In this document: piece after piece, positions 428 to 28,957 of the stretch
Layout of the letters: the number at the start of each line of letters is the position of its first letter
Numbering within the stretch: the stretch's first letter is position 1
Sequence record: NC_028896.1
DNA from: Escherichia phage pro147
Direction: 5' to 3' (one strand)
DNA length: 32,675 bases
Notes under the pieces: model-generated
Told to the model about the DNA's origin: nothing
What the model saw: only the letters and a program-made list of their open reading frames with translations
Databases searched by the model: none
Program-made: the position numbers and the translations under genes

Positions 428-1591
428 TCACTCATCATCTTCTGTTTCGTACTCCACATCAGAAAGCCTGACCTCAAGCTCCAGGGACGTCGTGAAGCCG
501 CTATTATTCAGAAAATGTGTCACCTTAGTGATTGTCCAGTCCTGCTCGTCTATGACGCGCTTAAAGCCTGACACTTTAACCGGTGTTTCCGTGTAAATAT
601 CTGCCCGACCGGTAGCCAGGCTGATGGAGAACTCCGCAACGCCCCGTTGCAGTTTATCCCACTTCGCCTGAGCGGCGCGCATGGCCTGCGCTTTCGTGGC
701 ATATACCGTGGTCAGGGCAAAAACATTGTCAGCCTCACCGGCCATATATTCACCTTCGCGCGCTTCCGGTACTTTTGGCTCTTTCTTCTGCCTGACCGGT
801 TTCGCTTTCGGGTGCTCCAGTGCGCGCAGGTGTTTTTCTTTCTTTTTGCGTTTCAGTTTTACCTTCTGCTTTTGCGGCTTCGGGTCTTTGGTGTGTAACC
901 ACTTTGCCGTTACGCCGGTATAGGCTCCACGGTCAGCAATCGCAAAATGATGACGGTCGCCGTCGCTGCGGGTGATGGTAATCTGCGGGATTTTTTTACC
1001 GCTGGCCGTCACCCCCTGCCCCGCTTTGAGAAACAGCAGTTTTCCCATTTTTACCGACACCTCACTGCCGTTGCGTTCAGCAAGACGGGTCAGGAATTTC
1101 GCATCAGACTCCTGCGACTGGTCGATGTGCGGGATTTTAATTCCTGCCAGTGACGGCGCGACACTGGCTTCCAGCCTGTTACGGGAGGCTATCGCCTCAA
1201 CAATCGCACCGAGCGTGGTGTCATGCCATGAGCCTTCCCGGCGGGAATTGAGCGTCCCGCGAAAATCTGCACTCCGGGCACGGATGGTGACCACATCCGG
1301 CGCGCCCCGGTGTTCAACCTCATCAACGGTAAATTTCCCTTTGCATACCAGGGCAAAACCTTTCCAGCCGATATACACCGTCAGGACAGCGCCACGAACC
1401 GGCAGCCCGACCTGCCCGTCGGCATCGTTCAGTTCAATATCAAGCTGGTCAGCCTCAAAGCCCCGGTTATCCGTCAGGGTCATGCTCATCAGACGGTCAC
1501 TGATATTGCCGGTAATATCTCTGCTGTCGAGCATCAGCATGTAATCCGGCGTCAGCGTACTGCCTGCATCAAATGTCAGCGTATCCAGCAT
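428..1591 (-). CDS. D: Tail protein D (late control gene D), 387 aa
   Basis: 387-aa ORF in the P2 gpD position between ogr and U; length identical to recalled P2 gpD; GC-rich backbone. Confidence 0.9.
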   Translation of the reverse strand: MLDTLTFDAGSTLTPDYMLMLDSRDITGNISDRLMSMTLTDNRGFEADQLDIELNDADGQVGLPVRGAVLTVYIGWKGFALVCKGKFTVDEVEHRGAPDVVTIRARSADFRGTLNSRREGSWHDTTLGAIVEAIASRNRLEASVAPSLAGIKIPHIDQSQESDAKFLTRLAERNGSEVSVKMGKLLFLKAGQGVTASGKKIPQITITRSDGDRHHFAIADRGAYTGVTAKWLHTKDPKPQKQKVKLKRKKKEKHLRALEHPKAKPVRQKKEPKVPEAREGEYMAGEADNVFALTTVYATKAQAMRAAQAKWDKLQRGVAEFSISLATGRADIYTETPVKVSGFKRVIDEQDWTITKVTHFLNNSGFTTSLELEVRLSDVEYETEDDE

Positions 1592-6989: not shown

Positions 6990-7799
6990 ATGACGCAAAT
7001 TAGTGAACGATGGAAGCACAACGGCATTACTAAAGGTTATTGCAATATTTGTGGAAAATATGACCTCCTCACAAAAGATCATGTTCCTCCAAAGTGTGCC
7101 ATAACCTTAGGTCCTGTTCTTCAGAAAACAGTTAGCGAATTTTTTGGTGTTCAGGAACCAGTTAAACCATTAAATGCTAAAAACGGCTCTTATTTCAAAA
7201 CCATTTGCAGCCACTGTAACAATAAGGTGTTAGGTGGACTCGACGTTGCAATTGAAAATGTAGCAAAGTCCTTTAAAGAACAGTTGAGTCAATATATGAA
7301 TGGTATGAGTGTATTTCCATTCATTAGAATACCTTTTGATAGCATATCTTTCACTAAGGCTATGATTGGACACGTGCTATCGGCAACTTCAGTTGAAGAT
7401 TGTAAAAAAGAACCCGTAGATAGCCCCTTCTATACACCTTTAAAAGATTATGTTTTGGGTAAGAATCCAAGTTTTGAGGAGACTCATGATATTTACTACT
7501 GGTTTTACCCACACAGAATGCACATATCAGCTCAAAGTGTAGCATTTATGAACGAAGGACATGTAGCATTTATTTGTGCTTTACATTTTTTTCCTATCGG
7601 TTTTATTATCACAATTAAAAATGAAGGAATATACCCTGCACACTCAACAAAATTAGAGCTTAAAGATAAATTCCTTACATTTAACATGACATCTGTAAAT
7701 TATGAGTATACGACATTTCCATTTGTAAATCTTAAGGGAAACCAAATGTATGCTATAAGCAACGGCCATACATGTGTGAGTTATCCAATAATTAAGTGA
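6990..7799 (+). CDS. Hypothetical 269-aa protein with N-terminal HNH-nuclease-like motif, in the P2 Z/fun cargo position; candidate anti-phage / superinfection-exclusion protein
   Basis: AT-rich ORF on the strand opposite all flanking late genes; ATG at 6990 preceded by GAGGGA. Motif string CNICGK...KDHVPPK...N...CSHCNN resembles the CxxC / DH / N / CxxC signature of HNH endonucleases. The C-terminal ~180 aa were not recognised. Confidence 0.6.
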   Translation: MTQISERWKHNGITKGYCNICGKYDLLTKDHVPPKCAITLGPVLQKTVSEFFGVQEPVKPLNAKNGSYFKTICSHCNNKVLGGLDVAIENVAKSFKEQLSQYMNGMSVFPFIRIPFDSISFTKAMIGHVLSATSVEDCKKEPVDSPFYTPLKDYVLGKNPSFEETHDIYYWFYPHRMHISAQSVAFMNEGHVAFICALHFFPIGFIITIKNEGIYPAHSTKLELKDKFLTFNMTSVNYEYTTFPFVNLKGNQMYAISNGHTCVSYPIIK

Positions 7800-7853
7800 C
7801 TGCTAGATCATAAAATCGACGCAAGTTCACTTTCTACATATACCATCTATAAT

Positions 7854-7877
7854 GTCCGCTCTTGGCACAGAGCGGAC
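7854..7877. terminator. Hairpin between the convergent cargo gene and tail fiber assembly gene G
   Basis: Perfect 9-bp stem gtccgctct (7854-7862) / agagcggac (7869-7877), loop tggcac; sits in the 127-bp gap between two convergent stop codons. Confidence 0.55.
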
Positions 7878-7926
7878 TGTCAGATTAGGCTTTACTCTAT
7901 GCAATAGATATGTAAGCTCATACAAC

Positions 7927-8457
7927 TTATTGCGGCATTTCCGGCCATTCAGGATTTGCAGGATCCACACGGCTGACCAGAACGCTGTAGCGTTCCCATG
8001 CTTCCAGTCGTGTGCGCTCCTCGTCTGTTGCCATATTCAGCCTGACAGCGCGTTCCAGCGGCTGGATGACTGATTCAGCTTCGGAAAGCAATGCGGCCTT
8101 TTGTAATTCGGCCTGTTGTTGCTGTTCGTCTGCCGTATAAATCCGTTTAACTACAGCTCCATCCTTAAACATCCACTTACCGGAATCATCAGCGCGGCGG
8201 TTGGCTGTAATATCGGAAACCTCAACGACGCTAAAACCTTCAGGGTTAAGCGTGGAGGCATCTTTAGTGATGGCGACAATAATATTATTCTCGTCATAAA
8301 GAATTTTTATTGTGTCTTCCTGAAAGTTCTTTAATTCCTCGTACCAGTTTTTACCGTCTTCGGACCATAACCAGATAACATCAAAATTCTTTGTTAGCTG
8401 GTATTGTTCGACAGTTTTAGGGTTTCCAGACTTAATATTTTTTAAATGCTGCATCAT
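7927..8457 (-). CDS. G: Tail fiber assembly protein G, 176 aa
   Basis: 176-aa ORF immediately downstream of the tail fiber gene; position and length match P2 gpG. Confidence 0.85.
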
Positions 8458-19196: not shown

Positions 19197-19369
19197 TGTC
19201 AGGAGTCCTGAATAGTGATTAGAGGAGTCACATGTCGGCATCAGTTTCCCGACGATACGCATCCTCCGCCATCAGTCCCGGATGGCTTATCACTGACACA
19301 ACAGCACCTTAGCGAATCGCGGGGCGCGACTCAGTAGCCTTGCCGTGTATTCATCACGGCGAGGTATTC
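19197..19369. promoter_or_regulatory. Divergent late promoter region between O and P (expected Ogr-dependent promoters)
   Basis: 173-bp intergenic region between the divergently transcribed scaffold and terminase genes. Assigned by synteny with P2; no confident Ogr box could be picked out by eye. Confidence 0.45.
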
Positions 19370-21142
19370 ATGACCATCACCACAGACACCACTCTTTTAC
19401 ACGACCCGCGTCGTCAGGCGGCGCTGCTGTACTGGCAGGGGTTTTCCGTGCCGCAGATTGCCGCCATGTTGCAGATGAAACGCCCGACGGTGCAGAGCTG
19501 GAAACAGCGCGACGGCTGGGACAGCGTTGCCCCCATCAGCCGTGTCGAAATGAGTCTGGAAGCGCGGCTGACCCAGCTCATCATCAAACCGCAGAAAACC
19601 GGCGGTGACTTCAAGGAAATTGACCTGCTGGGACGTCAGATTGAACGACTGGCACGGGTCAACCGCTACAGTCAGACCGGCAACGAGGCAGACCTTAATC
19701 CGAACGTCGCTAACCGCAACAAAGGCGGGCGTCGCAAACCGAAAAAGAATTTTTTCAGTGACGAGGCCATCGAAAAGCTGGAGCAGATTTTCTTTGAGCA
19801 GTCTTTCGAATATCAGTTGCACTGGTATCGCGCCGGGCTTGAGCACCGCATCCGCGATATCCTGAAATCCCGCCAGATTGGCGCGACGTTTTATTTTTCC
19901 CGCGAGGCGCTGCTGCGCGCCCTGAAAACCGGTCATAACCAGATTTTTCTGTCGGCCAGTAAAACGCAGGCGTATGTGTTCCGCGAATACATCATCGCCT
20001 TTGCCCGGCTGGTTGACGTTGACCTGACCGGTGACCCGATTGTCCTGGGCAATAACGGCGCAAAACTGATTTTTCTCGGCACCAACTCCAACACCGCACA
20101 GAGCCATAACGGCGACCTGTACGTCGACGAGATTTTCTGGATCCCGAATTTTCAGGTACTGCGTAAGGTGGCATCAGGTATGGCCTCACAGAGTCACCTG
20201 CGCTCGACCTATTTCTCCACCCCGTCCACGCTGGCGCACGACGCCTACCCGTTCTGGTCGGGTGAACTGTTCAACCGGGGACGCGCCAGCGCCGCCGAAC
20301 GCGTGGAAATCGACGTCAGTCATAACGCCCTTGCCGGAGGTCTTCTCTGTGCGGACGGCCAGTGGCGGCAGATTGTCACCATTGAGGACGCCCTGAAAGG
20401 CGGCTGCACGCTGTTCGACATTGAGCAGCTCAAACGTGAAAACAGCGCCGACGATTTTAAAAACCTGTTCATGTGTGAATTTGTTGACGACAAGGCGTCG
20501 GTGTTCCCGTTCGAGGAGCTGCAACGTTGCATGGTCGACACGCTGGAAGAATGGGAAGACTATGCGCCGTTTGCCGCAAATCCGTTCGGCTCCCGCCCGG
20601 TATGGATTGGTTACGACCCGTCACACCGTGGCGACAGCGCCGGATGCGTGGTACTGGCACCGCCGGTGGTGGCCGGTGGCAAATTCAGAATACTTGAGCG
20701 TCACCAGTGGAAAGGCATGGACTTTGCCACCCAGGCGGAATCCATCCGCAAACTCACCGAAAAATATAACGTTGAATACATCGGGATTGATGCCACCGGC
20801 CTCGGTGTCGGCGTGTTCCAGCTCGTGCGCTCGTTCTATCCCGCCGCGCGCGATATCCGCTACACGCCGGAAATGAAAACCGCAATGGTGCTCAAGGCAA
20901 AAGACGTTATCCGCCGTGGCTGTCTGGAATATGACGTCAGCGCCACCGACATCACCAGCTCGTTTATGGCTATCCGCAAGACCATGACCAGCAGCGGACG
21001 CAGCGCCACCTATGAGGCCAGCCGCAGCGAGGAAGCCAGCCACGCCGATCTCGCCTGGGCGACTATGCACGCCCTGTTAAATGAGCCACTCACCGCCGGT
21101 ATCAGCACCCCGCTGACATCCACCATTCTGGAGTTTTACTGA
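19370..21142 (+). CDS. P: Terminase ATPase (large) subunit P, 590 aa
   Basis: Translation from the ATG at 19370 (preceded by GAGGT) gives 590 aa starting MTITTDTTLLHDP...; divergent from O as in P2. Confidence 0.92.
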   Translation: MTITTDTTLLHDPRRQAALLYWQGFSVPQIAAMLQMKRPTVQSWKQRDGWDSVAPISRVEMSLEARLTQLIIKPQKTGGDFKEIDLLGRQIERLARVNRYSQTGNEADLNPNVANRNKGGRRKPKKNFFSDEAIEKLEQIFFEQSFEYQLHWYRAGLEHRIRDILKSRQIGATFYFSREALLRALKTGHNQIFLSASKTQAYVFREYIIAFARLVDVDLTGDPIVLGNNGAKLIFLGTNSNTAQSHNGDLYVDEIFWIPNFQVLRKVASGMASQSHLRSTYFSTPSTLAHDAYPFWSGELFNRGRASAAERVEIDVSHNALAGGLLCADGQWRQIVTIEDALKGGCTLFDIEQLKRENSADDFKNLFMCEFVDDKASVFPFEELQRCMVDTLEEWEDYAPFAANPFGSRPVWIGYDPSHRGDSAGCVVLAPPVVAGGKFRILERHQWKGMDFATQAESIRKLTEKYNVEYIGIDATGLGVGVFQLVRSFYPAARDIRYTPEMKTAMVLKAKDVIRRGCLEYDVSATDITSSFMAIRKTMTSSGRSATYEASRSEEASHADLAWATMHALLNEPLTAGISTPLTSTILEFY

Positions 21143-22161
21143 TGAGTAAGAAAAAAGGGAAAACACCGCAGCCAGCGGTGAAAACAATGACTGCCAGCGC
21201 CCCGAAAATGGAGGCATTCACCTTTGGTGAGCCGGTGCCGGTACTCGACCGCCGTGATATTCTGGATTACGTCGAGTGCATCAGTAACGGCAGATGGTAT
21301 GAGCCACCGGTCAGCTTTACCGGTCTGGCAAAAAGCCTGCGTGCTGCCGTGCATCACAGCTCACCGATTTACGTTAAACGCAATATTCTGGCTTCAACGT
21401 TTATCCCGCACCCGTGGCTGTCCCAGCAGGATTTCAGCCGCTTTGTGCTGGATTTTCTGGTGTTCGGTAATGCGTTTCTGGAAAAGCGTTACAGCACCAC
21501 CGGTAAGGTCATCAGACTGGAAACCTCACCGGCAAAATATACCCGCCGTGGCGTGGAGGAGGATGTTTACTGGTGGGTGCCGTCCTTCAACGAGCCGACA
21601 GCCTTCGCGCCCGGCTCCGTGTTTCACCTGCTGGAGCCGGATATCAATCAGGAGCTGTACGGCCTGCCGGAATATCTCAGCGCCCTTAACTCTGCCTGGC
21701 TGAATGAGTCGGCCACGCTGTTCCGCCGCAAGTATTACGAAAACGGCGCTCATGCCGGATACATCATGTATGTCACCGATGCCGTGCAGGATCGCAACGA
21801 TATCGAAATGCTTCGCGAAAACATGGTTAAGTCGAAAGGCCGCAACAACTTTAAAAACCTGTTTCTCTATGCCCCACAGGGGAAAGCCGACGGCATTAAA
21901 ATTATCCCCCTCAGTGAAGTGGCGACGAAGGACGATTTTTTTAATATCAAAAAAGTCAGCGCCGCAGATCTCCTGGACGCACACCGCATCCCCTTTCAGT
22001 TGATGGGCGGTAAGCCGGAGAATGTCGGGTCACTAGGAGATATTGAAAAAGTGGCAAAGGTCTTTGTCCGCAATGAACTCATTCCATTACAGGAGAGAAT
22101 AAAGTCAATAAATGAATGGTTAGATATGGAAGTAATAAAATTCCTTGATTATAACTTATAA
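21142..22161 (+). CDS. Q: Portal protein Q, 339 aa (3' end AT-rich and apparently remodelled)
   Basis: 339-aa ORF overlapping the P stop (TGATG); position matches P2 gpQ. The last ~25 codons (22081-22161) are abruptly AT-rich, continuous with the downstream cargo island. Confidence 0.88.
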   Translation: MSKKKGKTPQPAVKTMTASAPKMEAFTFGEPVPVLDRRDILDYVECISNGRWYEPPVSFTGLAKSLRAAVHHSSPIYVKRNILASTFIPHPWLSQQDFSRFVLDFLVFGNAFLEKRYSTTGKVIRLETSPAKYTRRGVEEDVYWWVPSFNEPTAFAPGSVFHLLEPDINQELYGLPEYLSALNSAWLNESATLFRRKYYENGAHAGYIMYVTDAVQDRNDIEMLRENMVKSKGRNNFKNLFLYAPQGKADGIKIIPLSEVATKDDFFNIKKVSAADLLDAHRIPFQLMGGKPENVGSLGDIEKVAKVFVRNELIPLQERIKSINEWLDMEVIKFLDYNL

Positions 22162-22173
22162 GTAAATATATAA

Positions 22174-22200
22174 AGTTGGCGGAATGCAATCCCGCCAACT
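22174..22200. terminator. Hairpin between convergent Q and the retron-operon effector gene
   Basis: Perfect 9-bp stem agttggcgg (22174-22182) / ccgccaact (22192-22200) with 9-nt loop, filling the 42-bp gap between two convergent stop codons. Confidence 0.6.
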
Positions 22201-22203
22201 TAA

Positions 22204-22911
22204 CTATATATACTTCCTTTTTACTCTACTTAATTCTATCACTGATGAGGAGTGACAAAATGACAAATTAATAGTATCGATATAATCCAAAATTTGACTC
22301 TCAACCTCAATAAAAATATTTTTGGGCCCATTACTAATCGATATACCGATTTCATCCAAAACAGCCATCATTTTTCTCTGATGAGTTTTATATTTATAGT
22401 CTTTATTTTCCTCTGTAATATGTGCATTGGCTTCCTCAATAACACATTTGATTCTAGATATTATTTCTAGATAATCTCTCGAAACAGATATATCACCGCC
22501 TTGCGCTTCAGGGAACATAACCCTATACCATCTAAAAAAATTAACTTTCTCTGGATAGATGCTACTTCTTTTAGTTAACTCAGCACTTGCAAATTCTCTA
22601 AACATCGTCAGATGACTAGTGTAATTACTATTATTATTATTTTTAACTCCAGCGTTATATGTCATCAAAGCAATCATAACACCAAAAACGGTAACAAAAG
22701 TTGTTATAAGCCATCCAAACGCCTGAAAATACATTACTATACCAGATGTTTTTTCCGCAAAAAATTTTAAGCACTGGCTATCGAAGCATATATCACGCTC
22801 ATATAGCTTTTCATTCTGAATAGTTTCAAAAAGAGAAATTAGCGAAAAAATCAAAAAAAGAGCTGACGACACACCGACAATATATTTGAGAAGTCTAATA
22901 TTTGCATTCAT
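22204..22911 (-). CDS. Putative retron effector: 235-aa protein with two N-terminal transmembrane helices
   Basis: AT-rich ORF overlapping the 3' end of the upstream reverse-transcriptase gene by 4 nt. Hydrophobic segments YIVGVSSALFLIFSLISLF and VMYFQAFGWLITTFVTVFGVMIALMTY, followed by a ~140-aa soluble C-terminal domain. Confidence 0.7.
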   Translation of the reverse strand: MNANIRLLKYIVGVSSALFLIFSLISLFETIQNEKLYERDICFDSQCLKFFAEKTSGIVMYFQAFGWLITTFVTVFGVMIALMTYNAGVKNNNNSNYTSHLTMFREFASAELTKRSSIYPEKVNFFRWYRVMFPEAQGGDISVSRDYLEIISRIKCVIEEANAHITEENKDYKYKTHQRKMMAVLDEIGISISNGPKNIFIEVESQILDYIDTINLSFCHSSSVIELSRVKRKYI

Positions 22912-24182
22912 AATGGTTTTAAAGATGCCAATCTAGATTTAAAACACTCCAGTTTTTCTTTAAATGATTCAGAGCGAGTAAGAATAATCATCTTATATCT
23001 CGTCAAATCATATTTTCTTTTATACCAATGTTTATTTTGATTACCTTTCGAATACGACAACTCTAAACTTTTTATAGCTGCATCAATCACAGCAACATCT
23101 CTTTTAGATGGCATCGGTTTTATTGCCTGCAACTGTTTCTTGAATGATTCATATTTTTCATGCGCAACACGGCCAAGCTTATTCACTCTCCCCATACATC
23201 TATTGAATTCTTTTCTGTATGCAACACTTGTTTTTGTGTTATTTTTTGCCGCCAGTAATTTCAAATTATGTATAGATGCCCTGATTCTTTTGACTTCATC
23301 GGATGGTAGTCGAGGTGAGTCATAGTCAACTCTTAAACCATGTACTTTTATAGGTTCAGATGAACAGTGAAATATTTTAGTTTTGCGCTTATTTATCGGC
23401 AAGTCATGCTCAGAAAGCATCCTCTCTATATGGCTTTGCATTTGAGAAAAATCATAATTACTTATTTTAGATGACACGGTAATATCATCTACCAAACGCG
23501 TATAAACAAGTCCTTTCCTCTGCGCACGTCTTACCACATCCCCTTCAACAGCGAATAAACACAAAGTTGCTATATAGCTTGATGTTAAGGCCCCCTGTAC
23601 GACAAAATCATCCTTAGTACATATATCCACCAAGTATTCAAGAGCCTCATCCTTAATATGCAATATCTCCTCAAACACGCTCCTAACCAGATCTCTATGG
23701 ATATTATCGAAAAAATTACTTATATCCACCTTGAGAACTGTTTTTGCTCCACAATGAGCCTTTGCACATGAAACATAGTCACGTTTGACATTAGAATTTA
23801 AAACATCATTTTTACTGGGAACTGAACCAAACAAAAATGAAGGAAAAACAACCAATTCCTTAAAGATACGTTTATTAATTCTACTCTGTAATAATCTCAT
23901 TTTAGGATGCAGGGAGTAGACAATCCGTTTGCTTCCGTCAATTTTGGGAATTTCTTTTAGAGTATATTTCTCATCTAATGGTAATTCTGCAATAGCTTTA
24001 AGCTCTTCAACAGAAATCGATAAAGCCTTTGACAACTTTTCAAGTGTTGTGATAGGAGCATTGGATTTGCTGTATGGTTTAAATTTATCCATAAACATAC
24101 CATTCAAATTCAAAGTTACGTACGGTCTTCCCATACTCAAGGGTGGAACAGCAGAGATGCTTACATCAACAATTGTCAGCAA
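22908..24182 (-). CDS. Retron-type reverse transcriptase (start uncertain: TTG 24182, ATG 24134 or ATG 24098)
   Basis: Translation shows the RT motifs ...CAKAHCGAKTVLKVDISNFFDNI..., ...QGALTSSYIATLCL..., ...YTRLVDDITV... (YxDD box) and a VHGL motif resembling the retron VTG signature. AT-rich; the TTG at 24180-24182 is preceded by AGAGG. Confidence 0.8.
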   Translation of the reverse strand: MLTIVDVSISAVPPLSMGRPYVTLNLNGMFMDKFKPYSKSNAPITTLEKLSKALSISVEELKAIAELPLDEKYTLKEIPKIDGSKRIVYSLHPKMRLLQSRINKRIFKELVVFPSFLFGSVPSKNDVLNSNVKRDYVSCAKAHCGAKTVLKVDISNFFDNIHRDLVRSVFEEILHIKDEALEYLVDICTKDDFVVQGALTSSYIATLCLFAVEGDVVRRAQRKGLVYTRLVDDITVSSKISNYDFSQMQSHIERMLSEHDLPINKRKTKIFHCSSEPIKVHGLRVDYDSPRLPSDEVKRIRASIHNLKLLAAKNNTKTSVAYRKEFNRCMGRVNKLGRVAHEKYESFKKQLQAIKPMPSKRDVAVIDAAIKSLELSYSKGNQNKHWYKRKYDLTRYKMIILTRSESFKEKLECFKSRLASLKPL

Positions 24183-24423
24183 CAGCCTCTGCTATCTTTC
24201 GACCGTACGTAATGTCGTCGGCTACGGCACCATCGTAGTTGACGACGGTGGGGCCTCGCTGATAGGTCCATAGTGGACGCTTTTTTGTAAAAGCAAAAAC
24301 TGACAATTTAATGTTGTTGACTGCCGCATACCAAGCGAATCGCTGGTGCGCTAAGAATAATGCAACAAAAAAATAAGAATTTCAACCGGGTAACTGCAAG
24401 CCAGCGACATCGTTTAGCGCGCA
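24183..24423 (-). ncRNA. Candidate retron non-coding RNA (msr/msd) in the structured leader upstream of the RT gene
   Basis: GC-rich non-coding stretch between cos and the RT with a nested hairpin gtcgtc-gg-ctacg-gcaccat-cgtag-tt-gacgac (24214-24246) and a 12-nt inverted repeat ttacgtacggtc (24116-24127) / gaccgtacgtaa (24201-24212). Exact msr/msd boundaries could not be determined. Confidence 0.3.
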
Positions 24424-24442
24424 GTGCTTTCCCCGCCTCGCC
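24424..24442 (-). other. cos: Phage cos site: 19-nt cohesive-end sequence GGCGAGGCGGGGAAAGCAC (minus-strand sense)
   Basis: Plus strand 24424-24442 reads gtgctttccccgcctcgcc, the reverse complement of the P2 cohesive end as recalled; followed by ...ctgcgcgct as at the P2 left end. Adjacent GC hairpin ccgccc (24442-24447) / gggcgg (24456-24461) plus tttt. Confidence 0.75.
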
Positions 24443-24648
24443 CGCCCGCTTCATGGGGCGGTTTTAATGCAGTAGCATGACCACTCAACTAGCGCGCCAG
24501 TCCTGATGTCGCCAGGCAGTTATTGTTCTCTGACTTGCGTGCGCTTCGATGCAGAGTAATGCACTTCCTGAATTGCTCGCATTCGCATCGTTATCATGAT
24601 AGAAAACAGGTAGTTATTTGTGCGCAACTTAAGAAGAAATCACTAATT

Positions 24649-26193
24649 ATGAAAAAGATTTATGAATTAACTACTGGTAGAGCGCTTAAGTATTTTCTGC
24701 AGCATGATTCATACACTACTCTGGAGCTACCCAGTTATGTCGATTTTTCTTCCTTGCTTGAAGAAATCAACTCCGCGATAGATGAAGGTAAAATCAACTT
24801 CCAACCTGACTCCAAGTCATTGATGGGGAAGAATATAAATTACGAGGTTTTAGTCAGCAAAGATGGCTTATATAGCTGGCGACGAATAACACTAATTAAT
24901 CCTCTGTACTACGTGTATTTTTGTAAACTTATTACATCCCCTTCCAACTGGAAGGCTATAAAGAATAAATTTAGAGAGTTTGAGTCTAATGATCTTTTTT
25001 TATGCTCAAGTACCCCAGTGAGCAAAAAGAACACCTCAAACGTAGCTGCATCTGTTTTAAACTGGTGGGAAGATTTTGAACAAAAAAGTCTTTCATTGGC
25101 TCTTGAGTATGAGTTCATGTTCAGCACAGATATTTCAAACTTCTACCCTTCTATTTACACTCATAGCTTTGAATGGGTATTCATCTCAAAAGAAGAGGCC
25201 AAAAAGAAAGAAAATAACAATAACCCAGGACGATTGATTGACACTCATATCCAGATGATGATGAGTAATCAGACAAACGGAATACCATTGGGTAGTACGT
25301 TGATGGATACATTTGCCGAATTAATTTTAGGCGAAATTGATTTACAGCTAAGAAAAAAAACTGAAGAGCAAAAAATAACGGATTACAAAGTAGTTCGCTA
25401 CAGAGATGATTATCGAATATTTTCAAGCAGTAAAGATGATTTGGACAAAATCTCAAAGTGTTTGGTTGAGGTCTTAGGTGAGTTTGGGCTTGATTTAAAC
25501 TCAAGAAAAACAGAACTACATGACGACATCATTCTTCACTCTCTTAAATCAGCAAAAAAAGAATATATTATAGAAAGGTCGTTCAACTCCCTACAGAAAA
25601 TGTTGTATGCAATATATTTATTTTCTTTAAAACATCAAAACTCCAAAATTACAGTTAGATATTTAAATGATTTCTTGCGAAAATTATTTAGGAAGAAAAA
25701 GATCACAAATAGTGGGCATCAACTAGATGCAATGCTTGGAATTATTTCAAGCATCATGGCTAAAAACCCAACCACCTACCCAGTGGGAATGGCTATTTTC
25801 GCAAAACTCTTGACCTTCCTTTATGACGACGATGAACTCAAATTTGGCAAGTTACAACAACTTCATTGTAAACTAGGTAAACAACCAAATACTGAAATGT
25901 TAGATATTTGGTTTCAACGAGTTCAAGGGAAGATACACACACAATGGGAAGGCGATTACAAAACAGCCCTATGTCAACGCATAAATGATGAACTCAAGGG
26001 AAAAAAAACATTTACCATTGATGGCCTGTGGGATGTAGAGTGGATTCCGGGCTCAGCCAAAAGTAAAAACAAACAGAAAATACTATCAATTTTGAAAAAA
26101 ACAAAAATTGTGGATTTAGATGCATTCGAAGAAATGGATAATGATATTACACCAGAAGAAGTGAACTTATTCGACAAGGAACACAGCGCTTAA
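24649..26193 (+). CDS. Abi-P2-like (Abi/UG-class) reverse transcriptase, single-gene anti-phage system, 514 aa (alternative start ATG 24559)
   Basis: AT-rich ORF in the tin/old cargo position. RT motifs ...FSTDISNFYPSIYTH..., ...NGIPLGSTLMDTFAEL..., ...VVRYRDDYRIFS..., followed by a long C-terminal extension with no recognisable effector domain. No adjacent partner gene. Confidence 0.75.
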   Translation: MKKIYELTTGRALKYFLQHDSYTTLELPSYVDFSSLLEEINSAIDEGKINFQPDSKSLMGKNINYEVLVSKDGLYSWRRITLINPLYYVYFCKLITSPSNWKAIKNKFREFESNDLFLCSSTPVSKKNTSNVAASVLNWWEDFEQKSLSLALEYEFMFSTDISNFYPSIYTHSFEWVFISKEEAKKKENNNNPGRLIDTHIQMMMSNQTNGIPLGSTLMDTFAELILGEIDLQLRKKTEEQKITDYKVVRYRDDYRIFSSSKDDLDKISKCLVEVLGEFGLDLNSRKTELHDDIILHSLKSAKKEYIIERSFNSLQKMLYAIYLFSLKHQNSKITVRYLNDFLRKLFRKKKITNSGHQLDAMLGIISSIMAKNPTTYPVGMAIFAKLLTFLYDDDELKFGKLQQLHCKLGKQPNTEMLDIWFQRVQGKIHTQWEGDYKTALCQRINDELKGKKTFTIDGLWDVEWIPGSAKSKNKQKILSILKKTKIVDLDAFEEMDNDITPEEVNLFDKEHSA

Positions 26194-26293
26194 CGAAACA
26201 ATGTTATTAACTCAACATGACTTCGTTAAGCATTAAAGCGAACAGTCATATGAAATTTCGACATCCCTAACGCCTCGCAAGCTCGTTGTTCAC

Positions 26294-26338
26294 CCCCGCC
26301 AGCACTGAAAGCGAGTTTCAGCGTCGACGGGGTTTTCT
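26294..26338 (+). terminator. Possible intrinsic terminator downstream of the Abi-P2-like RT gene
   Basis: Composite hairpin: outer ccccg (26294-26298) / cgggg (26328-26332), inner ctgaaa (26305-26310) / tttcag (26316-26321), followed by ttttct. Confidence 0.35.
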
Positions 26339-26358
26339 ATGGTCAACGTGGTGACAGA

Positions 26359-26619
26359 TTATGGGCACGCGTGAAGGTAGAAATATGGACGGTTGGGATT
26401 ATTGATTTCTCCCATACGGCTGCAGTTATCACTGACGATCTCAGTCCCTCCGACCAACTCGTAGAGGGTCAGATTCTCTTTGACCATAATTTGTAAACAA
26501 TAGCCATCAGCCGCAGACTCTTGCACGAGTACAATGGCGGAACCGGACGCATAGCTAGTAATGTATGCATTAGTCATAATGACATGCTTCCAAAGCAAGA
26601 TCGCCACGCAGTTCCGCAT
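26359..26619 (-). CDS. Hypothetical 86-aa protein downstream of A (position of P2 orf91)
   Basis: ORF in the track only; sits where P2 carries orf91 but no sequence similarity could be verified from memory. Confidence 0.3.
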   Translation of the reverse strand: MRNCVAILLWKHVIMTNAYITSYASGSAIVLVQESAADGYCLQIMVKENLTLYELVGGTEIVSDNCSRMGEINNPNRPYFYLHACP

Positions 26620-26680
26620 GATCCATCAGTTGCTGATACCAACCATCAAATGGAAGCAAAATCAACCATTTCAATCATTT

Positions 26681-28957
26681 TTATATGTTTGTTGAGAATC
26701 CCGGCCACTCATCAGCGACCGGATACGTGAATTTTTCCCCGTCATAATTTACGGTCGCGCCACGCGCCAGCGCCTCAAGCTCCCATCGCTGTGGCCTGAT
26801 ACCGTTCTGAGCAAGGTCAACGCGGATACGGGTAATTTGCATTCGTTCCGACCGGGTCAGTCTGGCCGATGGCGCTATTTCATGCGGTTTTAACGGGCTT
26901 CCGTTTCTTTGCTGACGGTTTGGTCTTCTCAGACCGTGTTTTAATGCACCTCTGAGCGCCCTCACGACCTCCTGGTCATTCCATTCGATAACACCGTCAT
27001 CTACCAGATTAAGCACTGCTGCGGCGTGCTCAGAAGGTGTGGGAGCCGGTAACGAAGTATCACCACCGGTGAGCTTTCCACAGTTATTGACAGGACTCCG
27101 AGGCGCGGCGATGCCGCTTTTTAAAGTCAAAGGCTCAACGACCAGCACTTTCGGAACAATGCGCCAGTCCGTCGTTCTGGTGATATGAATATGACGCGCG
27201 CCGAGATGCGGCGCGTAAATGCCGACCACTCTCTCGACTTCTTCCTCGTACTCGTTAACTTCATCCGACGGACTACGGGCGACCCTGACAGTCTGACAAT
27301 CGCGCGGGACATTTGCCCCACCCTGCGCGCTGATATACAGCGCAAAATCGCCACTGTCTGCGGCAGCGCGTGCAGCCTCGACGCGTTCGTCAAACTCATC
27401 AGCAATGCTGACGCCGCGAGGTAATTTGCGTAGTTCACGGTAAGCCCCCATTGTCGGCAGGCCAACCGTTTTAAATTGCGGAATGCGCCACGTTGACGCC
27501 CATGCGGTAACAGCCGCGGCAGTGTCTTTCAGCGGCCTGCCGGTATCGTTATCGAGCTGACCATCCAGTGCATAGCCGTCGATGTTTTTTGAAATGTATT
27601 TCGCGATATACCCCGCAGCACCGCCCCGGTTAAGGTGTTTTGCCTGAAAACGGTTTCGCGCGGCTCCTCTTTCGTCGCCATCCTCTTTGAGCGCATAGCG
27701 ACGCATGATTTCGATAATCTGGTTACGCTGGCGCGGATTACAAAAAAGCATCATATGCCAGTGCGGCGTTCCGTCGTGGTGTGGCTCGACGACACGCAAA
27801 CCGTAGACCTGTAAATCATTATCCTTGAATGCCGTGCGCATCAGGCTCCAGATACGGCAGAGATAACGCTGCGCATCCTTTGGATTAAATGCCTCATCGT
27901 TCCAGCCGTGATTTAGCTGGACGGTTTTACTTTCGCCTTTTCTGACCTGACGTGTCGGGTGATACTTTGACGGCGCGGTCAGCGTGATAAACATCCCCAC
28001 ATCACCCTCTGCTGCGGCGTAACGCTCAATACCGGCAATGGTGTTCATCAGCTCCATCCGGCGAATTTCAGGATTAGAAATACTGCCCATCACCTTACTG
28101 ATAAGGTCGATGCGCTCGCCGGTTTCCCTGTTTTCAAGGTCACACGATTTAAGAAATTCCAGATTTGCCTGGCGGCGCGCACGCACATCACGAATGGCAT
28201 GTTTACTGGCATAAGGAGAACGGTCTTTATTGACCTCCCCGACAGCTATCAGTAACGCCTCATGCCAGCGCATACGTTGGCCTTTAAGCTGATGAGTCCA
28301 CCACTCATCGTTAAACAGGCGGGCAATGGCAGAATATGCCTGCCTCGTGGTCATCTGTCCTTTACGGTATTTTTTCCAGTAGAGCGGGGAAATATTGAAA
28401 GCACGTGCAGCGCCAGCAACATGACCATAGAGGTGAGCCTGCGCCTCATCCGTAAACAGCGATTCTTTTTCGCCATGTGCATCAACCCAGGCATCGCAGA
28501 GTTCCTCATACATCATGAAAAGCTGCGATGAGATACGGGCAGCAAACTTTTTCAGCTCCTTGTCATTCATTCCCGGCAGGCGCGCATAGTGGTCACGCTC
28601 TGCCAGAAACAGCAACGACGCGTCGGTGTTCATTTCATGGCGCTGATTCACACGCTCAATGCGCGGCCATAAACGACGCTGAAAAGTGGATGTGAGGAAA
28701 TAAAACCCGTGCACCGGGCTTTTATTGCGCCGGATGTAGTCATAACGTGAAGTAAACAGCGAGCGCAAAAAGTAAGGCAGGCGGTTAATCGTGGATAAAA
28801 CACCTTGCACCTGACGCATCTCGTCACGTGTAAGGGGTCTTTCGCGCCCGACAGCCTCGCGTGGCGCGTTCCATGCATAAGCACCGGTAAACGTCTTACC
28901 GGTGCCTGCGGCAAATGCTGACGGAGGGACAAAACGCCCGGAGGCTTTAACGGCCAT
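26681..28957 (-). CDS. A: Replication initiation protein A (rolling-circle nickase), about 758 aa from ATG 28957
   Basis: Translation from MAVKASGRFVPPSAFAAGTGK... matches the recalled P2 gpA N-terminus. The track ORF starts 14 codons upstream at a TTG (28999). The last few codons lie at the boundary with the cargo island. Confidence 0.9.
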   Translation of the reverse strand: MAVKASGRFVPPSAFAAGTGKTFTGAYAWNAPREAVGRERPLTRDEMRQVQGVLSTINRLPYFLRSLFTSRYDYIRRNKSPVHGFYFLTSTFQRRLWPRIERVNQRHEMNTDASLLFLAERDHYARLPGMNDKELKKFAARISSQLFMMYEELCDAWVDAHGEKESLFTDEAQAHLYGHVAGAARAFNISPLYWKKYRKGQMTTRQAYSAIARLFNDEWWTHQLKGQRMRWHEALLIAVGEVNKDRSPYASKHAIRDVRARRQANLEFLKSCDLENRETGERIDLISKVMGSISNPEIRRMELMNTIAGIERYAAAEGDVGMFITLTAPSKYHPTRQVRKGESKTVQLNHGWNDEAFNPKDAQRYLCRIWSLMRTAFKDNDLQVYGLRVVEPHHDGTPHWHMMLFCNPRQRNQIIEIMRRYALKEDGDERGAARNRFQAKHLNRGGAAGYIAKYISKNIDGYALDGQLDNDTGRPLKDTAAAVTAWASTWRIPQFKTVGLPTMGAYRELRKLPRGVSIADEFDERVEAARAAADSGDFALYISAQGGANVPRDCQTVRVARSPSDEVNEYEEEVERVVGIYAPHLGARHIHITRTTDWRIVPKVLVVEPLTLKSGIAAPRSPVNNCGKLTGGDTSLPAPTPSEHAAAVLNLVDDGVIEWNDQEVVRALRGALKHGLRRPNRQQRNGSPLKPHEIAPSARLTRSERMQITRIRVDLAQNGIRPQRWELEALARGATVNYDGEKFTYPVADEWPGFSTNI

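Follow-up and report, generated by a model that had tools for sequence, protein, structure and literature searches.

The window, that is the whole stretch of 32,675 nucleotides analysed here, represents Escherichia phage pro147 (NC_028896.1). The list of ORFs includes two minus-strand genes, encoding a reverse transcriptase (RT; 22908-24092, or 24134 if an upstream start is used) and a protein with two transmembrane helices (2TM; 22204-22911). The genes overlap by 4 nt (22908-22911), and a structured leader is located ahead of both, in the order ncRNA-RT-2TM. GC content drops from about 0.55 to 0.32-0.36 across 22000-24000, and measures 0.32-0.38 for the hotspot cargo. ORFs and GC fall bear out the AT-rich, two-gene minus-strand operon reported at these coordinates in an earlier note on this DNA. 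The portal gene Q ends at 22161, and is convergent with the 2TM gene, which has its stop at 22204. The left boundary of the cargo is a terminator hairpin (22173-22201; 13-bp stem including 6 G-C pairs, then a T-rich tail), equivalent to P2 tQ. The right boundary of the slot, external to the operon, is the P2 cos (24424-24442, minus strand), an exact 19-nt match to GGCGAGGCGGGGAAAGCAC aligned to P2 cosL; P2 similarity resumes at ~24414. The interval between the Q terminator (tQ, 160-181) and cos (1-19) spans ~140 nt in reference P2 (NC_001895), in agreement with the notion that the operon occupies a site where P2 has a short spacer.

Read from Q, the order is terminator, retron, cos, AbiP2 and finally gene A. 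A cos-proximal defence hotspot, located between gpA and gpQ, has been described in P2-like phages (PMC9122126; Rousset et al. 2022), and the genes found here have the features of hotspot cargo, being variable, low in GC, adjacent to cos, and enclosed by gene A (replication) on one side and gene Q (portal) on the other. AbiP2, an Abi-type RT 99.5% identical to P2-EC58, resides just across cos, 450 nt from the retron. A P2-like prophage of E. coli EC9 matches exactly the 4.25-kb hotspot (22150-26400), and has no exact match at the far end of the window. The D gene is an intact ORF of 387 aa (428-1591) in the window, free of the frameshift annotated in EC9. No direct repeats of at least 15 nt, as expected of att sites, were found between the window ends, and the ORF at 26359-26619 matched no entry in PADLOC or Pfam.

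Alternative forms of the RT differ at the N-terminus. RefSeq reports a 394-aa protein (WP_000357145.1; 22908-24092, minus strand), Swiss-Prot a 408-aa protein starting at ATG 24134; the longest ORF (22908-24182, minus strand) has a TTG start and encodes 424 aa. Translation starts at either ATG 24092 or ATG 24134, not at TTG 24182. ATG 24092 carries the AUGGAU motif conserved in the family; ATG 24134 sits in the loop of a hairpin (hairpin Z, see below), and is out of the RT frame in a relative locus (L003). Judging from sequence comparison, family conservation favours the shorter 394-aa form over the 408-aa Swiss-Prot form. In an exact-sequence look-up 408/408 residues coincided with Swiss-Prot RT48_ECOLX, the Retron Ec48 RT of strain ECOR-58. 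Profile searches, suggested as a check in the earlier note, gave 585.3 bits with PADLOC RT_IV (E = 1.4e-176; model positions 2-385 of 386, i.e. full length) and 108 bits with Pfam RVT_1; the next-best PADLOC models were RT_V (210 bits) and RT_VI (181 bits), and the strongest matches were all to retron RT models. CAKAH, DISNFFDNI, QGALTSSY and VHGL are found at residues 110, 123, 166 and 250, respectively (394-aa numbering). The catalytic YTRLVDD includes D202/D203, corresponding to D216/D217 in the 408-aa numbering, hence to the residues that Millman et al. replaced (D216A/D217A). The replacement of NAXXH by xAKAH, and of VTG by VHG, are published peculiarities of RT-Eco6 (PMC6868368), and both CAKAH and VHG are invariant among family relatives. 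The marks of the retron clade are thus present as variants, CAKAH for the NAXXH-type region X that separates motifs 2 and 3, VHGL for the VTG-type motif in motif 7. The retron-like character of the RT, initially proposed from xAKAH, DISNFFDNI, YTRLVDD and VHGL, holds true, as also denoted by the RT_IV match.

The 2TM protein (22204-22911, minus strand; 235 aa) features two N-terminal membrane helices followed by an all-helical soluble domain. It is identical at 235/235 residues to TM48_ECOLX, "Retron Ec48 transmembrane protein" (exact-sequence look-up), and scored 282.9 bits, over the full length, with PADLOC 2TM_IV, and 226.7 bits with NCBIfam retron_Ec48_2TM (NF038235; cut-off 65). Kyte-Doolittle plots place the hydrophobic helices at residues ~10-30 and ~58-85, and the AF2 model (pLDDT 79.6) has helices at 3-33 and 56-113; both analyses confirm the early description of two N-terminal TM helices and a soluble C-terminal domain. 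Both TM helices fall within residues 3-85, the segment deleted by Millman et al. Type IV retrons are defined by a two-TM membrane effector whose gene directly follows that of the RT or overlaps with it (Mestre cluster 826_1; PMC7736814), and the 235-aa protein conforms to this definition by the 4-nt overlap and by the PADLOC and NCBIfam scores.

The third component is the msr-msd ncRNA, which in the published Retron-Eco6 boundaries spans 24186-24371 (minus strand) and is identical at 182/185 positions to the ncRNA of the retron census (PMC10849725); we read the three single-base indels as machine-reading errors of the supplement PDF, because the RT-DNA line of the same census file contradicts them. 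msDNA-Ec48 is tentatively placed at 24205-24252 (plus strand; 48 nt; GTACGTAATG...GGTGGG), the start deduced from the census RT-DNA line (PMC10849725) and the length from the name of the retron. The predicted molecule holds a 13-bp msd hairpin (arms 24214-24226 and 24234-24246), the length of which differs among relatives, as expected of an msd stem. The msDNA of Eco6 measures 45 nt according to Palka et al. (PMC8989520); the length of msDNA-Ec48 (~48 nt) is set with dependence on RNase H1 (PMC8989520). Production of branched msDNA, with the 2'-OH of a conserved G as primer, has been published for the identical retron, and is abundant for Eco6 (PMC8989520). Retrons in general have a structured msr-msd RNA ahead of the RT gene, featuring msr hairpins, a long msd hairpin and inverted repeats on the flanks. 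The ncRNA here is such a leader, and covariation among 56 relatives backs its hairpins as well as a long-range helix. No RNA family was matched in an Rfam scan of 21500-27500 at E-value threshold.

RT, effector and ncRNA all match the reference retron, no differences from Ec48 being detected in the comparison of the three, and family membership and genomic position are also established. We conclude, with a probability of about 0.95, that this is Retron-Eco6 (Ec48), the founding retron of type IV, and that a P2-EC58-like prophage carries it as cargo in the slot between terminator and cos. The operon has already been characterised as the anti-phage retron Ec48: the observation was correct, the system is not new. 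The earlier note was right in assigning the operon to a retron family with a 2-TM abortive-infection effector, by virtue of the identity to Ec48, the function of which is published. The suggestion of a new or under-described variant was mistaken, because the operon is the type specimen of type IV (RT 408/408, effector 235/235, matching ncRNA). Retron Ec48 was reportedly first described by Mao et al. in 1997. It is catalogued in PADLOC, DefenseFinder-type classifications, NCBIfam and Swiss-Prot. Identical DNA marks 57 of 5,426 complete E. coli genomes, where the RefSeq label reads "retron Ec48 family effector membrane protein". The window corresponds to a P2-EC58-like prophage equipped with two RT-based defences, Ec48 and AbiP2, one on each side of cos.

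Sub-threshold matches to group II intron, Drt2, Drt3a and AbiA models, and the proximity of a genuine Abi-type RT (AbiP2, across cos), might be taken to indicate a non-retron RT (a group II intron maturase, or a DGR or Abi/UG/DRT enzyme) flanked by an unrelated membrane protein. Matches of this type are expected for any RT domain, and remain far under the NCBIfam cut-offs (TIGR04416, group II, 44.4 vs 300; Drt3a 39.8 vs 200; Drt2 34 vs 390; AbiA 24 vs 250), whereas PADLOC ranks retron models only at the top (RT_IV 585 bits, RT_V 210 bits). The nearest solved structures are retron RTs (Ec86, Kva2, Ec67, Ec78), and a RT-2TM pair with a 4-nt overlap is kept in Marinobacterium at 49% identity. In these searches the RT does not group with a non-retron clade, an outcome listed in the earlier note as contrary to a retron, and the exact identity to RT48_ECOLX refutes such an assignment, the likelihood of which is next to nil. 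A match of the 2TM protein to a lysis or exclusion family, a second contrary outcome listed there, was not observed either. The protein is small, membrane-bound and prophage-located, and belongs to a PHROGs family of phage proteins of unknown function (phrog_10895), as a holin, lysis or superinfection-exclusion gene merely adjoining the RT could; but its gene is translationally coupled to the RT gene and accompanies type IV RTs also outside prophages, and in the related P2-like prophage of EC9 the annotation puts the P2 lysis genes (holin, endolysin, LysB/LysC) at a different place from the retron site. Among the detected homologues carrying a source name, all are retron Ec48 effectors except two "hypothetical protein" entries, and deletion of the TM helices abolishes retron defence (10.1101/2020.06.21.156273). 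A lysis or exclusion gene is extremely unlikely.

It could also be argued that this copy of Ec48 is an inactive remnant, either silenced or devoid of a working ncRNA or promoter in the prophage context. AT-rich prophage cargo is often silenced by H-NS, according to one report (10.64898/2026.09.05.749240), and the retron promoter is here a consensus match only. Against this, neither ORF is disrupted and each has the sequence of the functional reference; the leader agrees with the published ncRNA, and the retron sequence is kept at 100% identity in many unrelated isolates. Ec48 moreover first came to notice as the msDNA of a natural isolate; the strain named in the Swiss-Prot RT48_ECOLX entry, ECOR-58, is also the source of P2-EC58. 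We regard a remnant as very unlikely.

A sigma-70 promoter is predicted on the minus strand at 24357-24385 (TTGAAA-17-CATTAT, 9/12 match to the consensus), with a start near 24350. In most family leaders, TTG.. -35 and TA...T -10 elements precede the first hairpin by an equal distance. The structured RNA that is transcribed probably extends from ~24350 to ~24093, and so overlaps the annotated N-terminal extension of the RT. The structured leader announced in the earlier note is thus present, and matches the Eco6 ncRNA; its proposed end at 24423 probably has to be moved to ~24350, as 24423 lies upstream of the predicted promoter. Simple folding of 24170-24423 did not reach significance (z = -1.77); this stretch takes in promoter DNA that is not transcribed.

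Covariation was analyzed in 56 type IV leaders; all the elements are given on the minus strand. The 5' hairpin H0 (24332-24346) has an invariant closing pair (G24341-C24337), 95.2% of cells paired, and compensatory changes at 5/6 pairs. A long-range helix, P, is made of three parts. The 5', a1-like strand (24300-24329) includes P0 (24329-24326), P1 (24320-24315) and P2 (24307-24300); the 3', a2-like strand (24157-24179) includes P2' (24179-24172), P1' (24171-24166) and P0' (24160-24157), and falls beyond the published ncRNA boundary. Compensatory changes were found in every pair of helix P, with 78-96% of cells paired. Directly 3' of the msd hairpin lie the 5' strands (24187-24212) of helices X (24212-24201; 94.7% paired, compensatory changes at 11/12 pairs) and Y (24192-24187; 92.9%, 5/6). 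The opposite strands are found, by covariation and folding, within 24116-24156: Y' (24156-24151) and X' (24127-24116) flank hairpin Z (24144-24129), the conserved UAUG loop of which contains ATG 24134. Between the end of X' and the RT AUG (24092) lie 23 nt. The published end of the Eco6 ncRNA (24186) leaves out P', Y', Z and X'. The MFE fold is helix P when the transcript is cut at 24157; the full-length leader uses X, Y and Z, as do 51/56 family members. Covariation thus supports, at the sequence level, two mutually exclusive leader folds, reaching just upstream of the RT start.

The branching G was sought in the leader by covariation of candidate positions across relatives, and was not located. 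The candidate proposed first, G24332, would be next to a priming helix formed by the 3' arm of H0, UUCGCUU (24339-24333), with GGUCGAA (24204-24198); the helix was ruled out because two relatives (L015, L019) lose pairing yet keep GGUCGAA. G24300 lies at the end of helix P2 and takes part in a covarying pair (G-C, A-U, G-U); it was hence rejected. G24123, opposite the reported first template base, was likewise rejected as part of a covarying pair (U-A 30, C-G 18). The a1/a2 pairing implied by the census (24371-24353 with 24204-24186) is mostly made of G-U pairs. Relatives do not conserve it, and its a1 strand falls upstream of the promoter predicted here.

The function of the retron in the window is carried over from published Ec48 by sequence identity, and is to be read accordingly as predicted. 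Ec48 was reported as an anti-phage guard of RecBCD in 2020 (bioRxiv 10.1101/2020.06.21.156273). Millman et al. found that either RT D216A/D217A or deletion 3-85 of the effector abolishes defence, that lambda gam and T7 5.9 mutants escape Ec48, and that expression of Gam or gp5.9 kills Ec48 cells (bioRxiv 10.1101/2020.06.21.156273). Gam triggering (10.1101/2025.10.22.683967) and defence against T7 (PMC13645617) have been reproduced. The accessory protein of Eco6 is not toxic when over-expressed alone, according to Palka et al. (PMC8989520), so a simple toxin/antitoxin picture may not apply. In the prophage, the promoter near 24385-24357 would transcribe the leader (msr-msd) together with the RT and 2TM genes. 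The RT would find in the leader its template as well as its primer, the 2'-OH of an internal G, and produce small branched msDNA-Ec48, the DNA length of which would be set by host RNase H1. RT, msDNA and effector are presumed to be kept inactive in the uninfected cell. Inhibition of RecBCD by phage products (lambda Gam, T7 gp5.9), or absence of RecB, would be the trigger, upon which the two-helix membrane effector would stop or kill the cell before the phage cycle is completed, resulting in abortive infection. The prophage would presumably gain by excluding competing phages from the lysogen.

It is conceivable, though we rate it as doubtful, that the leader of the Ec48 family (type IV) is a conserved two-state RNA, tying msDNA production to translation of RT and 2TM. 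The a1/a2-like helix P might form first during transcription, and be later out-competed by the X-X' and Y-Y' pairings, which would capture the template-proximal RNA as well as the stretch immediately ahead of the RT start codon. Since the X strand, and perhaps also the Y strand, is lost to reverse transcription and RNase H, synthesis of msDNA would release X', Y' and Z for good, and could in this way couple msDNA production to RT and 2TM translation. The alternative folds are the sole point that might exceed current knowledge; if real and undescribed, they would bear on self-regulation of type IV retrons, and on how the Eco6 ncRNA should be delimited for engineering.

The coupling logic of the two folds resembles that of the riboregulator just reported for type VI retrons. 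In the latter, a long structured RNA sequesters translation signals which are released by msDNA; the helices of the Ec48 leader likewise reach the vicinity of the RT start. Type VI retrons, such as Retron-Vpa2, and Retron-Sen1 (Se72, type V) share RT clade 3 with Ec48. The effectors differ: type V has a cold-shock-domain protein, Ec48 a 2TM protein, and type VI an HTH protein together with a small toxic peptide encoded within its RNA. Type V is triggered by Gam, as Ec48, and Gam alone suffices (10.1101/2025.10.22.683967). In contrast, type VI retrons are triggered by Beta plus Exo, and have no detectable msDNA before infection, whereas msDNA is abundant for Eco6 (PMC8989520; 10.1101/2025.10.22.683967). 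With Retron-Eco6 itself (Ec48; Mao et al. 1997, Millman et al. 2020, Mestre et al. 2020) everything tested was alike. Millman et al. likened the 2-TM module of Ec48 to CBASS transmembrane effectors, and proposed a signal-dependent compromise of the membrane (10.1101/2020.06.21.156273). Domain and structure searches revealed no sequence or informative fold similarity between these effectors and that of Ec48, and the cyclic nucleotide which activates CBASS is not the signal of Ec48.

As to position, Ec67 and Ec86 have been placed between cos and the terminator in 186-like prophages by Dodd and Egan (1996), as cited in PMC6868368, from which we take the statement. They reside in a slot equivalent to that of Ec48 here, where cargo takes the place of the short stretch that otherwise links cos to the portal-operon terminator; but they are of types I-C and II-A, have unrelated effectors, and mark 186-like rather than P2-like phages. 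The value of the locus is one of annotation; its terminator-to-cos slot is also used by other retrons in 186-like phages. Reference P2 carries exclusion genes, old and tin, in the same gpA-gpQ hotspot, likewise a prophage-borne abortive-infection function. Old is an ABC ATPase-TOPRIM protein and, unlike Ec48, involves no RT, msDNA or membrane effector; it is located on the other side of cos, where the window carries AbiP2. Like Ec48, it blocks lambda and kills recB cells, as stated in a preprint (10.64898/2026.07.10.737580). A retron guarding RecBCD in a prophage region where reference P2 has the RecBCD-sensing old fits with a hotspot exchanging functionally equivalent modules.

The minus-strand operon consists of an RT ORF, spanning 22908-24182 in its longest, TTG-initiated form, and an ORF encoding a 235-aa protein, the 2TM effector (22204-22911), both identified by ORF calling and overlapping by 4 nt. 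GC content is 0.32-0.36 in the operon, as against ~0.55 in the P2 structural genes that flank it. The translated RT features the motifs CAKAH, DISNFFDNI, QGALTSSY, YTRLVDD and VHGL, and the 235-aa protein two strongly hydrophobic N-terminal segments, approximately at residues 10-30 and 58-85. An AT-rich two-gene operon, these RT motifs and two N-terminal TM helices had all been described in an earlier note made from the sequence alone, and all were found. The soluble domain of the effector is modelled by AF2 as an all-helical bundle (pLDDT 79.6), for which structure comparison of the model returned no informative relative.

Judged by sequence, the operon is Retron-Eco6 (Ec48), a type IV retron, itself. 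The identity is settled by exact-sequence look-ups, because the 235-aa protein coincides with Swiss-Prot TM48_ECOLX, and the 408-aa form of the RT, starting at the ATG at 24134, with RT48_ECOLX (listed as "Retron Ec48 reverse transcriptase"; an alternative name points to ECOR-58). The profile search suggested in the earlier note agrees: PADLOC assigns the RT to RT_IV (585 bits, whole model length) and the 235-aa protein to 2TM_IV (283 bits), and NCBIfam places the latter in retron_Ec48_2TM (226.7 bits vs a cut-off of 65). Assignment of the RT to a non-retron clade, the alternative considered there, was rejected, non-retron RT families scoring far under their NCBIfam cut-offs. The leader aligns at 182 of 185 positions with the Retron-Eco6 ncRNA in the supplement of a retron census (PMC10849725); the differences, three single-base indels, were treated as machine-reading errors, because they are contradicted by the RT-DNA line of the same supplement. 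The two motif oddities of the RT visible in the earlier note (xAKAH and VHG) correspond to the two exceptions published for RT-Eco6 (PMC6868368), both invariant among relatives with 43-50% identity. The reading as a retron acting by abortive infection was correct; the suggestion of a new or under-described variant was wrong, as Retron-Eco6 is already known and the operon is not a novel system.

The genes encoding the P2 terminase ATPase (19340-21142) and the portal protein Q (21142-22161) lie upstream of the operon. A 13-bp terminator hairpin is found at 22173-22201, the 19-nt P2 cos sequence at 24424-24442, and likeness to P2 DNA starts again at ~24414; the operon therefore fills the slot between terminator and cos. 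The same interval measures only ~140 nt in reference P2, which bears out the insertion proposed between Q and cos. The gpA-gpQ region beside cos is a defence hotspot of P2-like phages, with cargo including retrons (Rousset et al., PMC9122126), and this prophage location is of a known kind for Retron-Eco6. On the other side of cos resides a second RT gene, AbiP2 (24523-26193, plus strand, RefSeq-style start 24649; PADLOC 531.6 bits), so that cos has an RT-based defence on either side. The gene shares 99.5% identity with the functional RT that P2-EC58, from ECOR58, encodes. A G+C-rich hairpin at 24441-24461 (CCGCCCGCTTCATGGGGCGG then TTTTAATG, plus strand) shares two bases (24441-24442) with cos and runs toward AbiP2. 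Along the plus strand it resembles a terminator, but AbiP2 is transcribed in that same direction, and the hairpin lies upstream of the gene; a cos-flanking packaging element and a terminator are candidate roles.

Among complete E. coli genomes, 57 of 5,426 contain the same 2.4 kb, mostly at 100% identity, and RefSeq already labels the retron locus there; AbiP2 is also present in 42 of the 57. In E. coli EC9 (NZ_CP060950.1, 3721167-3753610), the counterpart of the window is a complete P2-like prophage with pflA and pflB on its two sides. Gene D, annotated as frameshifted in EC9, is intact in the window (428-1591, 387 aa). No attachment-site direct repeat of at least 15 nt was found at the window ends. 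A 269-aa ORF on the opposite, plus strand (6990-7799), between tail-fibre assembly and tail-sheath genes, lies within a low-GC island (~7000-8000, GC 0.37), where P2 has its variable Z/fun locus. This uncharacterised cargo gene features CxxC...DHVPP...CxxC motifs, HNH-like in look, and matches nothing in Pfam or PADLOC; its one assignment is to phrog_21495 (unknown function). It is a possible candidate for exclusion or defence.

Statements on mechanism derive from published work on this exact sequence. Ec48 defends against phages of three families, and defence is lost upon D216A/D217A changes in the RT active site or deletion of effector residues 3-85; in escape mutants of lambda and T7, the mutated genes are gam and 5.9, which encode RecBCD inhibitors (Millman et al., bioRxiv 10.1101/2020.06.21.156273). 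The two aspartates, numbered on the 408-aa form, are D202/D203 in the 394-aa form of the window, and the TM helices of the effector fall within residues 3-85. Later studies confirmed triggering by Gam (10.1101/2025.10.22.683967) and defence against T7 (PMC13645617). The length of the ~45-48-nt RT-DNA is set by RNase H1, and the effector on its own was non-toxic in one study (PMC8989520).

Loci whose RTs have 37-100% identity were gathered from genomes (5 loci) and metagenomes (80 loci), and 56 distinct type IV retron leaders were aligned. With pairs counted on an author-specified structure, 90.9% of cells are paired, vs 33-43% when partners are slid by 1-3 columns, and compensatory changes occur at 46 of 50 pairs. 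The signal spans 24093-24350 (minus strand), especially 24116-24212. Covariation supports a hairpin at the 5' end (H0), the 12-bp helix X-X' (24212-24201 with 24127-24116), the 6-bp helix Y-Y' (24192-24187 with 24156-24151), and hairpin Z. It likewise supports helix P, a long-range pairing in three parts (24329-24300 with 24179-24157) that encloses the msr hairpins and a length-variable msd hairpin. Branching G candidates at helix ends were rejected, as they covary like ordinary paired positions, and covariation analysis did not locate the branching G in the Ec48 leader. Beyond 24186, where the published Eco6 ncRNA stops, the conserved helices continue for ~70-90 nt, ending 23 nt before the RT AUG; the published boundary therefore leaves out conserved RNA elements.

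The conserved UAUG loop of hairpin Z contains the ATG at 24134 (24132-24134), taken as RT start by Swiss-Prot and Millman et al. In a relative from Marinobacterium this ATG does not share the RT reading frame, and the AUGGAU at 24092, the RefSeq start, is conserved among the aligned leaders. The 394-aa form starting at 24092 is therefore favoured and, on this sequence comparison, appears the likelier one.

Helix P crosses X and Y, and the loop closed by Y-Y' contains the entire 3' strand of P, which directly abuts Y'; we infer that P and the X/Y/Z set are mutually exclusive folds. Energy calculations point the same way: P is present in the predicted fold of an Ec48 transcript ending after P0', and that of the full leader contains X, Y and Z, at -85.2 kcal/mol vs -78.8 if P is forced. 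The minimum-energy fold contains P in 42 of 56 truncated leaders, and both X and Y in 51 of 56 full-length ones. The calculated energies favour P while the transcript is nascent, and X/Y once the leader is complete. It is conceivable that such a switch would couple synthesis of msDNA, the branched RT product, to translation of RT and effector, the regulatory analogue being the hyRNA of type VI retrons.
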